From an uncultured Gemmatimonadales bacterium (lineage in GTDB: Bacteria; Gemmatimonadota; Gemmatimonadetes; Gemmatimonadales; GWC2-71-9): a stretch of 64,000 bases of DNA. The position numbers were made by a program, and so were the translations under genes. The notes under the pieces were generated by a model. The model saw nothing but the letters and a program-made list of their open reading frames with translations, was not told the origin of the DNA and did not search any database. The DNA is taken from contig CAVSQW010000006.1 in assembly GCA_963730185.1 (NCBI GenBank), positions 384,001-448,000 of the forward strand, in the 5' to 3' direction. Positions 31,960-42,382 of the stretch are shown piece by piece; the first letter of the stretch is position 1, and every line of letters begins with the position of its first letter.

Positions 31960-32030
31960 ATAAGCGCGACTAATGCTTTCCATAGGTGACATTAGCGCCG
32001 CTTGCGAACCACGTCGGGGCTCCGCAGAAT
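31960..32030 (+). promoter_or_regulatory. LysR-type operator (ATAAG-N5-CTAAT, T-N11-A) with -35 TTGCGA and -10 CAGAAT for the mutase operon
   Basis: Ungapped 31/47 match to the dgdR-dgdA intergenic motif at 40966..41012; 17-nt spacer between the -35 and -10. Confidence 0.7.
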
Positions 32031-32185
32031 AGGTCGGCAGCGGAACGACGCCATCCCGCTCTCTGCCGGGTCCCCCTGAATGGCGGTCGGCGTTGACTGT
32101 CGGGGCGGCAACGAAGGTCGGAGCCGACAAGGGGTACGCCGACGGTCGGATCGAGCCGCCGGCTGTCTTTCGGGAGGGGCAACCA

Positions 32186-33874
32186 GTGAACAAGACCAAC
32201 GAGGTGGCGGCGACCCCGGGATCGCCCGACGTGGAGACCTGGCAGCGCACCACCCTTGCTGCCAGCCTCGAGCGGCTCCGACCGCGACGCGAGGCGTTCA
32301 CGACGCTGTCGGGACTGCCGGTCAAGGAGCTCTACACGGCCGACGACCTGAAGGACGTCGATCCGGCCCGGGACATCGGGTTTCCGGGGGAGTATCCCTA
32401 TACCCGGGGCGTCCACGCGACCATGTACCGCGCCCGGCCCTGGACGATTCGCCAGGTCGCCGGTTTCGGCACGGCCGAGGATACCAACGGACGCTACCGG
32501 TACCTGCTGGCGCACGGGGAGACCGGGTTGTCGACGGACTTCGACCTTCCCACCCTCCTCGGCTACGACTCGGATCACCCGATGGCGGTGCCCGAGATCG
32601 GCAAAATCGGCGTCGCGGTGGATACCATCGACGACGTCCATCTCCTGATGAAGGACATTCCGCTCGATCAGGTCTCGACCTCCTACACCGTCAACGCGTC
32701 GGCCTTCGTACTGATGGGGATGTACGAGGTGGTGGCGAAATCCCAGGGGGTGCGCGCCGACCAGATCACCGGAACCATCCAGAACGACATTCTGAAGGAA
32801 TACACCGCGCAGAACGAGTACATCTATCCGCCGGCCGATGCCGTCCGGCTGGTCGTCGACACGATGGAGTACGCGGCCACGACGATGCCGCGGTACAACC
32901 CCGTCAGCGTCTCCGGCTATCACATTCGGGATGCCGGGTCGACCGCGGTGCAGGAGCTGGCGTTTACCCTGGCGGCGGGTCACTGCTACGTGACCGAGGC
33001 CGTCGAGCGCGGCTTGTCGGCCGATTTCGTGGCCCCGCGAGTGTCCTTCTTCTGGAACATCCAGAACGACTTCTTCGAGGAGATCTGCAAGCTGCGGGCG
33101 GCGCGGCGGCTCTGGGGACGGATGATGCGCGACTGGGTCGGCGCCAAGGATCCCCGTTCCTGGACGATGCGGGCCCATTCGCAGACCTCGGGCGTGAGCC
33201 TGACCGCGCAGCAGCCCGACAACAACATTGCCCGAACGGCGATTCAGGCCCTGGCCGCGGTGCTGGGTGGCACCCAGTCGCTCCATACGAACTCGAAGGA
33301 CGAGGCATATCAGATTCCCTCGGAAGGCGCGATCAAGATCGCGGTCCGGACCCAACAGATCCTGGCCTTGGAGAACCGGGTCGCGGATGTGGTCGACCCG
33401 TTGGGCGGCTCCTACTACGTCGAGTCGCTCACGACCCGGCTCGAGGAGGAGGCCGAGGCGCTGATCCGCCAGGTGCTGGATCGGGGCGGCATGGTCCAGT
33501 GCATCCAGGACGGGTTCATTCAGCGCCAGATCGCCGATGCGTCGGCCGCCTACCAGCAGGCCGTGGAGGCGAAATCCGAATTCATCGTCGGTGTCAACGT
33601 GCATGCCGAGCCGGAGGGCGAGCTGCCATTCGAGCCGTTCGTGCTCGATCCGGGTCTGGCCGAGCGACAGATCAAGCGAACCCAGGGGATTCGGCGGGCT
33701 CGGGCCCAGGCGGAGGTGGCCAGCGCCCTCAGGGCCATCGAGCAGGCGGCTCGAGGTGGCGAGAACACGATGCCCAGTACGGTTCGCGCGATCAAGGCGC
33801 AGGCAACCGTGGGCGAGATCTGCGATGTGCTCCGGGAAGTCTTCGGCGGGTACCGGGCGCCGATCGTCTACTAG
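32186..33874 (+). CDS. B12-dependent acyl-CoA mutase large (substrate-binding) subunit, HcmA-like; predicted 2-aminoisobutyryl-CoA mutase
   Basis: GTG start with GGAGG RBS, 562 aa; PGEYPYTRG, RPWTIRQVAGFG, GLSTDFDLPT, GTIQNDILKEYTAQ, SGYHIRDAG, GGTQSLHTN. Confidence 0.93.
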   Translation: MNKTNEVAATPGSPDVETWQRTTLAASLERLRPRREAFTTLSGLPVKELYTADDLKDVDPARDIGFPGEYPYTRGVHATMYRARPWTIRQVAGFGTAEDTNGRYRYLLAHGETGLSTDFDLPTLLGYDSDHPMAVPEIGKIGVAVDTIDDVHLLMKDIPLDQVSTSYTVNASAFVLMGMYEVVAKSQGVRADQITGTIQNDILKEYTAQNEYIYPPADAVRLVVDTMEYAATTMPRYNPVSVSGYHIRDAGSTAVQELAFTLAAGHCYVTEAVERGLSADFVAPRVSFFWNIQNDFFEEICKLRAARRLWGRMMRDWVGAKDPRSWTMRAHSQTSGVSLTAQQPDNNIARTAIQALAAVLGGTQSLHTNSKDEAYQIPSEGAIKIAVRTQQILALENRVADVVDPLGGSYYVESLTTRLEEEAEALIRQVLDRGGMVQCIQDGFIQRQIADASAAYQQAVEAKSEFIVGVNVHAEPEGELPFEPFVLDPGLAERQIKRTQGIRRARAQAEVASALRAIEQAARGGENTMPSTVRAIKAQATVGEICDVLREVFGGYRAPIVY

Positions 33875-33896
33875 TCCGTCACGGGAACCGAGAACC

Positions 33897-40103: not shown

Positions 40104-40967
40104 CTAGATCGTCGGCAGGACGAGCCGCACGTGCTCCGCGAAGGCGCTCACCAACGCGCTCGGTTGATCGCTGTCCACCGTGAGCGCGATCCCCACGCTC
40201 GGTAACGGCGGCAAGCCATTCTCCGCGGGGAGCACCCGCAGGTCCTCGGGCACGGCGGTCCGGGTGAGCACCGCGATCGCCTGCCCGGATCGGACCACCG
40301 CCGTCAGGCCCGCCAGACTCGCGCTGGCGTAGGCGATCCGATAGGCCCGACCGATCGCCTCGAGACTGCGGCGCGCCGCCTGGTGATCGAGCGTGTCAGG
40401 GTCGGTCAGCGCGAGCTGAAGCGGATCGACGCGCGGCACGTTCGACCCGACCGAGCCCACCCACACGAGCGGCTCCCGCCGAATGACCGTCTTGCCCTTC
40501 TCGCGCTCGGCCAAGGAGACGAGGGCGAGGTCCAAGCCATGGCGCTCAAGCCGCTCGAGGAGCCGGGGCGTGTGAGCGCAATGCACCTCCACGAGCACCC
40601 CCGGATGCTCGCGGGCGAAGCCGCGGAGCAAGTAGGGCAGGAAGACCACCGCGTAGTCGTCCGGACAGCCGAAGCGGATCGTCCCGACGAGTCCCTTTCC
40701 CGAGAGCTCGGCGAGCGCCTCGTCGTGGTACCGGAGGATCCGGTGGGCGTGGGCGAGCAGCCGCGTCCCGTGCGCGGTGAGGCTCACGCCTCGCCCGCTT
40801 CGATCCAGCAGGCTGTGACCGACGATCTCCTCGAGCCGCTTCACCTGGAGGCTGATGGCGGCCTGGGTCTTCCCGACCCGAGCGCCCGCCCGGCTGAGCG
40901 TTCCGGTCTCGGCGATGACGGCGAACGTCCGGAGCAACCGGAGGTCCAGCTCTTCGATCATGGCCAT
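40104..40967 (-). CDS. dgdR: LysR family regulator divergent from dgdA (DgdR-like)
   Basis: LDLRLLRTFAVIAETGTLSRAG, TQAAISLQVKRLE; the divergent arrangement with dgdA matches Burkholderia cepacia dgdR/dgdA. Confidence 0.8.
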   Translation of the reverse strand: MAMIEELDLRLLRTFAVIAETGTLSRAGARVGKTQAAISLQVKRLEEIVGHSLLDRSGRGVSLTAHGTRLLAHAHRILRYHDEALAELSGKGLVGTIRFGCPDDYAVVFLPYLLRGFAREHPGVLVEVHCAHTPRLLERLERHGLDLALVSLAEREKGKTVIRREPLVWVGSVGSNVPRVDPLQLALTDPDTLDHQAARRSLEAIGRAYRIAYASASLAGLTAVVRSGQAIAVLTRTAVPEDLRVLPAENGLPPLPSVGIALTVDSDQPSALVSAFAEHVRLVLPTI

Positions 40968-41012
40968 AAGATAGACAAATGGGTCAGATTAATGCTATTA
41001 GCCCGGCTTGCG
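40966..41012 (+). promoter_or_regulatory. LysR-type operator (ATAAG-N5-CAAAT) and -35 TTGCGC of dgdA
   Basis: T-N11-A box overlapping the dgdR start; same spacing as the motif at 31960..32006. Confidence 0.7.
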
Positions 41013-41077
41013 CTGCCCGACCCGTGGCGAGTAATTCTGCTCGACCCGGTCCTGACCGCGAGGGCGGTGGAGGCAGC

Positions 41078-42382
41078 GTGGCTGGAGACGCGGATTCACA
41101 ATTCTGGCGGGATGCTGAGGCGCACCTGATTCGTTACGGCGGCCGCTTCGAGCCCATCATCATCGAGCGGGCCGAGGGGAGCTTCGTCTACGACGCGGAC
41201 GGACGAGCCATCCTCGACTTCACGTCGGGTCAGATGAGCTCGCTCCTCGGTCACGGTCACCCCGAGATCGCGACTGTCGTGGCCGATCACGCCCGGCGGC
41301 TCGATCACCTATTCAGCGGGATGCTCTCCCGACCCGTGGTCGATCTCGCGCGCGAGCTCGCCCGGGCGACTCCGGAGGGACTCGATCGGGTGCTCCTGCT
41401 CAGCACCGGCGGCGAGTCGAACGAGGCGGCGATCAAGCTGGCCAAGCTCTTCACCGGCGGCCACGAGATCGTCGGCTTCTCGCAATCGTGGCACGGGATG
41501 ACCGGCGGCGCCGCCTCCGCCACCTACTCGGCCGGTCGGAAGGGGTACGGACCGGCGGCCGTCGGCTCGCTCGCGATCCCGGCGCCTAACGCTTACCGTC
41601 CTCGGTTCGAGCGAGCCGGCCAGGCGGACTGGCGGGCCGAGCTCGACTACGGCTTCGACCTGGTCGACAGCCAGTCGACCGGGGGTCTGGCCGCCTTCAT
41701 CGCCGAGCCGATCCTGAGCGCCGCCGGAGTGGTCGAGCTGCCCCTGGGATATCTGGCGGCGCTCAAGCGCAAGTGCGAGGAGCGCGGGATGCTCCTGATT
41801 CTGGACGAGGCGCAGACGGGGCTGGGCCGGACCGGGCACCTGTTCGCGTTCGAGCGGGACGGCGTCGCCCCGGACATCCTGACGCTCTCCAAGACCCTCG
41901 GCGCCGGCCTCCCGCTGTCCGCCGTGATCTGCTCGGCCGAGGTCGAGGAGCGCTGCCACGAGCGCGGGTTCCTCTTCTACACGACCCACGTATCGGACCC
42001 CCTCCCGGCGGCGGTCGGACTCAAGGTGCTCGAAGTGGTGCAGCGCGATCGTCTGGTCGACCGGGCTCGGGAGGTCGGGGCAAGGCTCGAGCGGGGCTTG
42101 CGCGCCCTCCAGCAGCGATTCGAGTGCATCGGCGACGTGCGCGGAAGGGGCCTCCTGCTCGGCGTCGAGATCGTCTCCGATCGCGTCGCCCGGACGCCGG
42201 CCCCCGCATTGGGCGCCGCGATCACTCGCGCCTGCCTGGACCTCGGGATCAGCATGAACATCGTTCAATTCCCCGGGATGGGCGGCGTCTTCCGGATCGC
42301 GCCGCCGCTCACCATCAGCGATGCCGAGATCGACCTGGGCCTCGATCTGCTCGGGCGAGCGTTCGAGACGGCCGTGGGCTGA
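41078..42382 (+). CDS. dgdA: 2,2-dialkylglycine decarboxylase (PLP-dependent, class III aminotransferase fold)
   Basis: GTG start with GGAGG RBS, 434 aa; [87 protein letters not shown] closely follow the B. cepacia DgdA sequence as I recall it. Confidence 0.9.

Follow-up and report, generated by a model that had tools for sequence, protein, structure and literature searches.

What would an acyl-coenzyme A (CoA) mutase that depends on B12 do in an operon that also encodes an acyl-CoA ligase and an ammonia-lyase-like protein, a short distance from dgdA, the gene for 2,2-dialkylglycine decarboxylase? This question is raised by a 64,000-nucleotide stretch (the window) of contig CAVSQW010000006.1, positions 384,001 to 448,000, from an uncultured Gemmatimonadales bacterium (assembly GCA_963730185.1, here labelled G000; 82% complete, 69% GC). 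An earlier note, made from the letters alone, described there a coupled operon without frameshifts encoding a mutase large subunit, a B12-binding subunit, a ligase, a lyase like Kal (3-aminobutyryl-CoA ammonia-lyase), MeaB and an amino acid ester hydrolase, with dgdR and dgdA downstream, and proposed that it converts 2-aminoisobutyrate (Aib) to crotonyl-CoA. All six genes were found intact, in that order and without internal stops, joined in turn by a 22-nt gap, a 4-nt overlap, a 4-nt gap, a 4-nt overlap and an 8-nt gap. The LysR gene and dgdA were confirmed by family and by the match of dgdA to 1D7R. The pathway proposal itself is supported by linkage of the mutase to Kal, dgdA, DgdR and a putative DgdR box, and by a separate mutase clade. 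We put at about 70% the probability that this operon acts on Aib, and probably on isovaline too, turning the aminoacyl-CoA into a 3-aminoacyl-CoA and this into an enoyl-CoA and ammonia; the substrate, each catalytic step, the direction and the effector of the regulator are what we infer from sequence.

In the proposed pathway, DgdR would control an operon that breaks down alpha,alpha-dialkyl amino acids. Aib, and probably isovaline, would be released from peptides by peptidases and the ester hydrolase, and the ligase would convert the amino acid to its aminoacyl-CoA. The adenosylcobalamin (AdoCbl) mutase, composed of two subunits and serviced by MeaB, would take a hydrogen from a methyl group and shift the carbonyl-CoA group (a 1,2-shift), as HcmAB does with the hydroxy analogue, while Asp118 would hold the substrate amine. 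The product would be 3-aminobutyryl-CoA from Aib and 3-aminopentanoyl-CoA from isovaline, and the Kal-like lyase would remove ammonia from 3-aminobutyryl-CoA to yield crotonyl-CoA for beta-oxidation. Such a route would keep all four carbons, would need neither O2 nor pyridoxal 5'-phosphate (PLP), and could run beside or instead of DgdA. Precedents for its steps are the 2-hydroxyisobutyryl-CoA mutase (HCM) HcmAB (PMC7176365), the acceptance of lactyl-CoA by HCM (PMC11599936), and the breakdown of beta-valine by a ligase and a CoA-dependent ammonia-lyase, crotonase-fold ammonia-lyases being described there (PMC4619459).

The mutase large subunit, MutA (562 amino acids, GTG start, the same length as its closest homologues), has the PF01642/TIGR00641 barrel of the mutase family and is accompanied by a B12 subunit with the DxHxxG motif and by MeaB. 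It is 48.6% identical to HcmA of Methylibium petroleiphilum PM1, in which Asp117 is presumably the residue that binds the 2-hydroxyl group of the substrate. At HcmA positions 90, 117 and 208, where HcmA has Ile, Asp and Gln, the window protein has Val91, Asp118 and Gln209; Asp117 and Gln208 are present and Ile90 is not. Neither the Tyr and Arg of methylmalonyl-CoA mutase (MCM; Tyr/Ala/Arg) at positions 90 and 208 nor the Phe and Ala at 90 and 117 that we take to mark isobutyryl-CoA mutase (ICM)-like rows (Phe/Ala/Gln) were found. The checked pocket residues match HcmA except, among others, Val90, Asn199, Asn209 and Asp248.

Mutase homologues were found at 138 loci and the best 79 were kept, 68 of which (L001-L068, from Gemmatimonadota, Pseudomonadota, Chloroflexota and Actinomycetota) belong to the clade of the window mutase; the 68 loci, and the 50 genomes, 33 close loci and five exceptions referred to below, include one unpublished genome, G017 (L021); no conclusion rests on it or on a second unpublished genome, G106, whose Kal match was left out of account. 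Val and Asp were present at all 68 loci and also in 114 of the 120 closest protein clusters, the remaining six not being matched by the pattern for the first residue. In a tree of 92 rows (quick IQ-TREE, midpoint root, Shimodaira-Hasegawa approximate likelihood ratio test (SH-aLRT) only, with long-branch warnings), 65 rows formed one clade (SH-aLRT 99) apart from HcmA and from a second Val/Asp lineage (8 rows, SH-aLRT 100). A tree of this kind had been suggested in the earlier note, and the window enzyme does separate in it from HcmA, MCM and the ICM-like rows. A plasmid search with the window mutase returned no member of its clade (best match 53%). The clade is a conserved, uncharacterised B12 acyl-CoA mutase system. 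Since G000 encodes two additional mutases (a Tyr/Arg type on contig C2 and a Phe/Ala type on C15), an adenosyltransferase and several 3-hydroxyacyl-CoA dehydrogenases, the window operon appears to be an extra, specialised mutase. A very divergent Val/Asp mutase on a long branch was also seen at L041:18488-20143; it is accompanied by a mutB, a ligase and a thiolase-like gene of its own and lies 7 kb from one of the clade's standard operons.

Genes for Kal-like proteins often accompany this mutase: at 51 of the 68 clade loci, one is encoded no more than 10 kb away (tblastn with the window protein alone; the same count was obtained by profile). Where at least 3.5 kb was available on both sides, Kal was present in 39 of 45 loci and the clade-type ligase in 40 of 45. 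Five of the six well-flanked loci without Kal nearby were searched genome-wide, and Kal was found elsewhere in four of the five genomes, one of them G017; in G021 and G040 the missing genes are on the same contig, and in G021 Kal stands with the ligase, mutB and meaB. None of 18 control mutase loci (11 Phe/Ala, 4 HcmA, 3 others) had Kal. The earlier note had held that close mutase homologues unlinked to kal or dgdA would speak against its pathway; both are linked, with Kal at these 51 loci and dgdA at 13. The gene order is mutA-mutB-lig-kal-meaB in Gemmatimonadota and Pseudomonadota, kal-lig-meaB-mutA-mutB in Actinomycetota, and different again in Chloroflexota. The only significant matches of the window protein were to Kal models and, in the PDB, to the beta-alanyl-CoA:ammonia lyase Acl (4MTU), and its Thr-Glu and Gly-Asp-Glu-Gly-Leu motifs are conserved. 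This hotdog-fold protein probably works like Kal and is not classed as Kal. No lysine fermentation genes were found near it in the window, and an origin of the gene in lysine fermentation was set aside on gene context alone. A PF05853 gene occurs on another G000 contig; PF09043 had no match in G000, nor did the control for it match anywhere.

The window dgdA is, as judged from its match to 1D7R and its residues, a genuine decarboxylase gene: Q52, W138, M141, K272 and R406 are kept and S215 is replaced by Ala (residue list from PMC10169451). Aib and isovaline from peptaibols are the substrates described for DgdA in that source, according to which Aib makes up much of the peptaibols (PMC10169451). 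dgdA was located within about 11 kb of the mutase at 13 of the 68 loci, in 10 genomes (5 Gemmatimonadota and 5 Actinomycetota), one copy being cut by the locus edge, and was found anywhere in the genome in 14 of 50 mutase carriers (one locus per genome searched). It was present in 8 of 11 mutase-bearing Gemmatimonadota versus 8 of 400 genomes of a sample of the phylum, the relatives compared not being independent, and in all six genomes of the window's genus. A remnant of the 5' end of dgdA, 86% identical to the intact gene (tblastn 61% over 77 amino acids), lies 230 nt upstream of the putative operator of the mutase operon; it has no start codon, has Arg at the Gln52 position, and was not seen in the closest relatives, L001 and L002. 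The remnant suggests that a dgdA copy once lay on the mutase side of the cluster.

DgdR of Burkholderia cepacia responds to Aib or isovaline. The best plasmid matches of the window LysR protein are encoded by LysR genes divergent from dgdA (59-64% in Burkholderiaceae), and it is orthologous to the LysR protein whose gene diverges from dgdA in Burkholderiaceae and rhizobia. A DgdR-like LysR (at least 55% identity) is encoded at 16 of the 33 closest mutase loci, 11 of these in genomes in which dgdA was not found, and the LysR proteins of mutase loci nest among those divergent from dgdA (FastTree, no outgroup). The earlier note had counted a shared operator among its lines of evidence. The part of this claim that stood is the direct match: the 47-mer at 31960 matches that at 40966 at 31 of 47 positions, the best of about 10.5 million genome positions (next best 27), in a 47-nt frame chosen after the match had been seen. 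The weaker part is the score on an independent profile, trained on 13 dgdR/dgdA gaps, none beside a window-lineage mutase, with the sites' own composition as background; on it the site at 40965 ranks first in the genome and the one at 31960 is weak. Of the 16 training gaps, three had no anchor and were left out. With shuffle p<0.01 as the limit, 22 of 32 close loci (21 of 31 without G017) have a putative box upstream of mutA, these p-values being optimistic because of mononucleotide shuffles and an anchor pattern written after looking at the sequences. Twelve of the 22 box-positive loci belong to published genomes in which dgdA was not found; among the ten misses, one of them the window's own site, four have an internal mutA. 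A first operator profile had rewarded AT-richness and was replaced. The motif scan with it was dominated by AT-rich stretches at G000:C7:719000-756000 and C12:423000-435000, which may be foreign islands or binned-in contigs.

A second mutase lineage was found beside dgdA. On rhizobial plasmids, the genes directly after dgdR/dgdA are mutB, meaB and those for a mutase, a crotonase and a CaiC-like ligase. The mutase encoded there, which shares 47% identity with the window enzyme and 58% with HcmA, has Val90, Asp117 and, as in the window enzyme, Asp248; members of the lineage (L101, L102, L105, L137, L236 and L240-L243) share an operon with dgdA in Sinorhizobium, Shinella, Mesorhizobium-like genomes and Sphingosinicella. 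Among 400 Rhizobiales genomes sampled, all four further members follow dgdA in one operon; at the ten Ile/Asp HcmA loci of the same sample, HCL was always present and dgdA or Kal never. Both lineages coexist in G023 (Pseudaminobacter salicylatoxidans), G026 (Sphingosinicella) and G021, and in G021 the second-lineage mutase is followed by Kal (65%) instead of the crotonase and preceded by a box-like site. The crotonase has both catalytic Glu residues and, six residues after the second, a Phe, as in BvaB1; the Phe was dropped as a mark of a BvaB1-like lyase, being present also in three of nine other crotonase homologues of the genome. The same crotonase stands beside Kal in L003, L005 and L007, and propionyl-CoA genes adjoin the Shinella cluster. 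A mutase of intermediate type from the Rhizobiales sample, L244 (G1105:C37; Val/Asp, 63% identical to HcmA), is accompanied by an HCL-like ligase and the crotonase and by no dgdA.

The ligase had no blastp match to HCL of strain PM1 at E<1e-5. In an alignment of 49 members, Glu226 and Ala289-Ser290-Glu291 are invariant and the His that usually follows the Pro-x-Phe motif is absent; an acidic residue there could bind an amine. A structure model (predicted local distance difference test 90) has the ANL fold and gave no clue to the substrate. When metagenomes were searched with the ligase alignment, the 80 matches obtained were generic ligases (27-49% identity), with a mutase near one of them and Kal near none. 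The ester hydrolase has a hydrophobic N-terminus that resembles a signal peptide as judged by eye. Orthologues of at least 60% identity occur in 18 of 33 close loci, and only these were counted as linkage because the taxa are generally peptidase-rich, G000 having more than 20 matches to the hydrolase.

Recurrent neighbours of the mutase are peptidases (M19, S15, S9, S10, M20 and an M1 fusion), amidases, an adenosyltransferase and 3-hydroxyacyl-CoA dehydrogenases (the last in eight clade loci), with amino acid permeases and tRNA-editing domains in some neighbourhoods. Peptaibols, fungal peptide antibiotics in which the unusual amino acid Aib occurs, may be the source of the Aib. Islands of about 45-50 kb that hold both mutase lineages occur at G021:C6:566000-612000 (L236, L237, L025) and G026:C3:349000-402000 (L137, L143, L032); rich in prolyl-oligopeptidase, S15, S10 and M19 peptidases, transporters and TonB receptors, they are candidate peptaibol-degradation islands. 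A YbaK-type tRNA-editing gene lies beside dgdA and the mutase operon at L036:14643-15140 and six other actinobacterial loci, and its product may keep Aib or related amino acids from being loaded onto tRNA. At L053:67-6170, L054:7-6209 and L066:12112-17532, a glutamine-synthetase-like gene, short-chain dehydrogenases, a C26 gamma-glutamyl hydrolase and an aldehyde dehydrogenase adjoin the operon; dgdA is present too in L053 and L054, and a ferritin-like di-iron protein in L066. These genes could form an upper pathway that makes Aib from 2-amino-2-methyl-1-propanol or tert-butylamine.

The closest relatives of the window locus are Gemmatimonadales metagenome-assembled genomes (MAGs), with identical gene order through dgdA. 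Two of its features had gone unmentioned in the earlier note: the dgdA remnant, and a metallo-beta-lactamase (MBL)-fold gene, for which 5 of the 33 close loci have an orthologue (70% identity or more). The 1203-amino-acid fusion protein encoded downstream of dgdA clusters with copies in 15 of 79 loci; one copy matches ABC2_membrane_3 and Peptidase_M1, and the window's own copy had no Pfam match at 1e-10. A scan for sigma-70 promoters and terminators gave nothing above chance. Farther upstream, at 25490-26871 (+), a serine beta-lactamase-like gene is apparently split over two frames near 26200 (open reading frames 25041-26921 and 26227-26871), a possible frameshift.

Table 1 Features of the mutase operon and its surroundings, in window coordinates
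Feature	Position	Strand	Evidence
dgdA 5' remnant	31579..31728	+	blastn, 129/150 identical to dgdA 41123-41272
Putative promoter region and DgdR box, mutase operon	31960..32006	+	31/47 identical to dgdR/dgdA site
mutA, acyl-CoA mutase large subunit, candidate 2-aminoisobutyryl-CoA mutase	32186..33874	+	PF01642; best PDB match HcmA 4R3U
mutB, B12-binding small subunit, DxHxxG motif	33897..34295	+	PF02310, TIGR00640; 4R3U_C match
AMP-forming acyl-CoA ligase, candidate Aib-CoA ligase	34292..35845	+	PF00501
Hotdog-fold Kal/Acl-like protein, candidate 3-aminoacyl-CoA ammonia-lyase	35850..36233	+	NF052388, 126.9 bits (cut-off 160)
MeaB GTPase chaperone	36230..37198	+	PF03308; TIGR00750 above cut-off
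Alpha-amino acid ester hydrolase, candidate for freeing Aib from peptides, amides or esters	37207..39108	+	TIGR00976; 1MPX, 733 bits
MBL-fold hydrolase, downstream of dgdR	39139..40038	-	PF00753; PDB matches all weak
LysR regulator, DgdR orthologue (start 40967 or 40961)	40104..40967	-	PF00126/PF03466
Putative DgdR box in dgdR/dgdA gap	40966..41012	+	Top profile site of genome
dgdA, 2,2-dialkylglycine decarboxylase	41078..42382	+	B. cepacia 1D7R, 719 bits
ABC ATPase with an approximate start, and fusion of ABC-2 membrane and M1 peptidase parts; both travel with the cluster	42394..46904	+	ABC_tran

Several observations weigh against the Aib pathway. dgdA was not found in 36 of the 50 mutase-carrying genomes, many of which are incomplete MAGs. 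A nearby mutase is lacking at 27 of 28 alphaproteobacterial dgdA loci, the sole exception being the centre genome itself, and at all six further Gemmatimonadota dgdA loci, and four of the six genomes of the window's genus have dgdA without the window-type Kal. This frequent separation of dgdA and mutase fits alternative routes but weakens the link between them. The site at 31960 reached 1.4 bits on the box profile (shuffle p = 0.02), and the loci of Actinomycetota and Chloroflexota, which have a mostly internal mutA and no DgdR in the vicinity, gave no box upstream of mutA. The window's Kal-like protein scores below the NF052388 cut-off (126.9 versus 160 bits), which one of 12 clade members passes. 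As the second-lineage crotonase also occurs together with Kal (three loci), it may simply hydrate the product, and most operons of that lineage would then lack a lyase. By our own chemical reasoning, cob(II)alamin could be reduced by an alpha-amino product radical, with inactivation of the enzyme. In addition, a thiamine-dependent relative of 2-hydroxyisobutyryl-CoA lyase is encoded at 10 of 79 loci, as in true hcm operons, and a 3-hydroxyisobutyryl-CoA hydrolase at seven actinobacterial loci, either of which may hint at other substrates. Paralogous mutase operons in several actinobacteria imply multiple substrates as well, and together with the coexisting lineages they indicate more than one substrate or enantiomer.

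The same chemistry might serve another amino acid and not Aib, mainly isovaline, another alpha-methyl amino acid, 2-aminobutyrate or alanine, the last two giving 3-aminoisobutyryl-CoA or beta-alanyl-CoA and then methacrylyl-CoA or acrylyl-CoA. We consider this unlikely. The coexisting lineages and paralogous operons would suit it, as would the hydrolase at seven loci, the propionyl-CoA genes at the Shinella cluster, a lyase whose closest solved relative is Acl, and the Val in place of Ile90, which may leave a larger pocket. However, the named substrate of DgdA is Aib, abundant in peptaibols (PMC10169451), the 3-hydroxyacyl-CoA dehydrogenase genes of eight clade loci fit crotonyl-CoA, and alanine requires no B12 route. 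A still weaker candidate is a divergent 2-hydroxyisobutyryl-CoA mutase, fed by 2-hydroxyisobutyrate or by DgdA-made acetone through thiamine-dependent condensation with formyl-CoA, with the hotdog protein as a dehydratase or thioesterase. A lyase and mutase route of this type was proposed for acetone in Desulfococcus biacutus (PMC7176365), and the thiamine enzyme at ten loci, the best PDB match to HcmA and the kept Asp117 and Gln208 agree with it. Yet the clade stands apart from HcmA and has no HCL, Kal was absent from all 13 Ile/Asp HcmA loci tested, and a 3-hydroxybutyryl-CoA product would not need Kal; moreover, G000, at 82% completeness, yielded no thiamine lyase of that type, and the putative DgdR box is kept in genomes in which no dgdA, which would supply the acetone, was found.

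Two further schemes alter the direction or the migrating group. The operon could serve a beta-amino acid, with the ligase activating 3-aminobutyrate for Kal and the mutase running toward Aib-CoA, to feed DgdA or to make Aib. A ligase with a CoA-dependent ammonia-lyase is a proven pair, whose ligase BvaA did not activate Aib in the account given (PMC4619459), and acyl-CoA mutases are reversible. The mutase would nevertheless be superfluous with Kal present, dgdA was not found in many carriers, the hydrolase linked to it belongs to the alpha-amino acid type, and no biosynthetic genes were seen among the recurrent neighbours; we hold this scheme to be improbable. Least probable of all, the amino group might migrate, so that Aib-CoA would become 3-aminoisobutyryl-CoA, then methacrylyl-CoA, and enter the valine pathway. 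Genes for the 3-hydroxyisobutyryl-CoA hydrolase and for aldehyde dehydrogenase, found near some of the actinobacterial loci, would fit, but the hydrolase occurs only at actinobacterial loci that are closely related, and the checked pocket residues equal those of HcmA apart from the substitutions given above. To our knowledge, all characterised members of the mutase family move the carbonyl-CoA group.

If the Aib pathway is correct, the mutase would catalyse a new B12 radical reaction, a carbon-skeleton shift at an amino-bearing carbon without PLP, within a third way to degrade Aib, next to DgdA and AibH; of the three, it alone would retain every carbon and do without oxygen. Many genes labelled as methylmalonyl-CoA mutase family, rhizobial ones included, would be re-annotated; the 120 closest clusters per lineage are at least 76% (window lineage) and at least 85% (second lineage) identical to the query. 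Run in reverse, the pathway could make Aib or chiral beta-amino acids from crotonyl-CoA and ammonia, which would be of biocatalytic use, and cultured carriers of the mutase system exist, among them Steroidobacter flavus CGMCC 1.10759, which has the operon and in which dgdA was not found, and Pseudaminobacter salicylatoxidans DSM 6986, which has both lineages and dgdA. We give even odds to a broader reading, in which these are the first AdoCbl-dependent alpha-aminoacyl-CoA mutases, in two lineages under one regulator, and form a widespread third Aib/isovaline route in peptidase-rich islands through which soil and sediment bacteria use fungal peptaibols; in that reading, the two lineages may split the work by substrate or enantiomer. 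Neither an aminoacyl-CoA mutase nor a B12 route for Aib was found in the open-access literature searched, patents and most subscription journals being outside its scope, and the term 'aminoisobutyryl-CoA' did not occur in the papers returned by one of the searches. According to Hibi et al. 2021 (PMC7782822), no enzyme other than DgdA was known to act on Aib before their monooxygenase.

Among known systems, the window cluster is most like HcmAB/HCL/MeaH of Aquincola tertiaricarbonis and M. petroleiphilum PM1 (4R3U), with which it shares a split B12 mutase, Asp117, Gln208, Tyr244 and His245, and a ligase and MeaB in the operon. It differs in mutase identity (about 49%), separate clade, Val90, unrelated ligase and Kal, and in its context of DgdR and dgdA versus GntR. 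The lyase shares its hotdog fold and conserved motifs with Kal of lysine fermentation and with Acl (4MTU), but 11 of 12 clade members fall below the Kal equivalog cut-off and the gene stands beside a mutase and not beside lysine fermentation genes. With DgdA of B. cepacia and the AibH1H2 monooxygenase of Rhodococcus wratislaviensis (PMC7782822), the proposed route has its substrate in common, whereas it would use CoA, B12 and ammonia elimination in place of decarboxylation, PLP or O2. The BvaA/BvaB1/BvaB2 system of Pseudomonas SBV1 likewise joins a CoA ligase to a CoA-dependent ammonia-lyase and acts on an amine at a tertiary carbon (PMC4619459), and a crotonase-fold lyase could correspond to the crotonase of the second lineage. 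The beta-valine route, in contrast, needs no mutase, and its PaaK-like ligase BvaA is described as not accepting Aib (PMC4619459).

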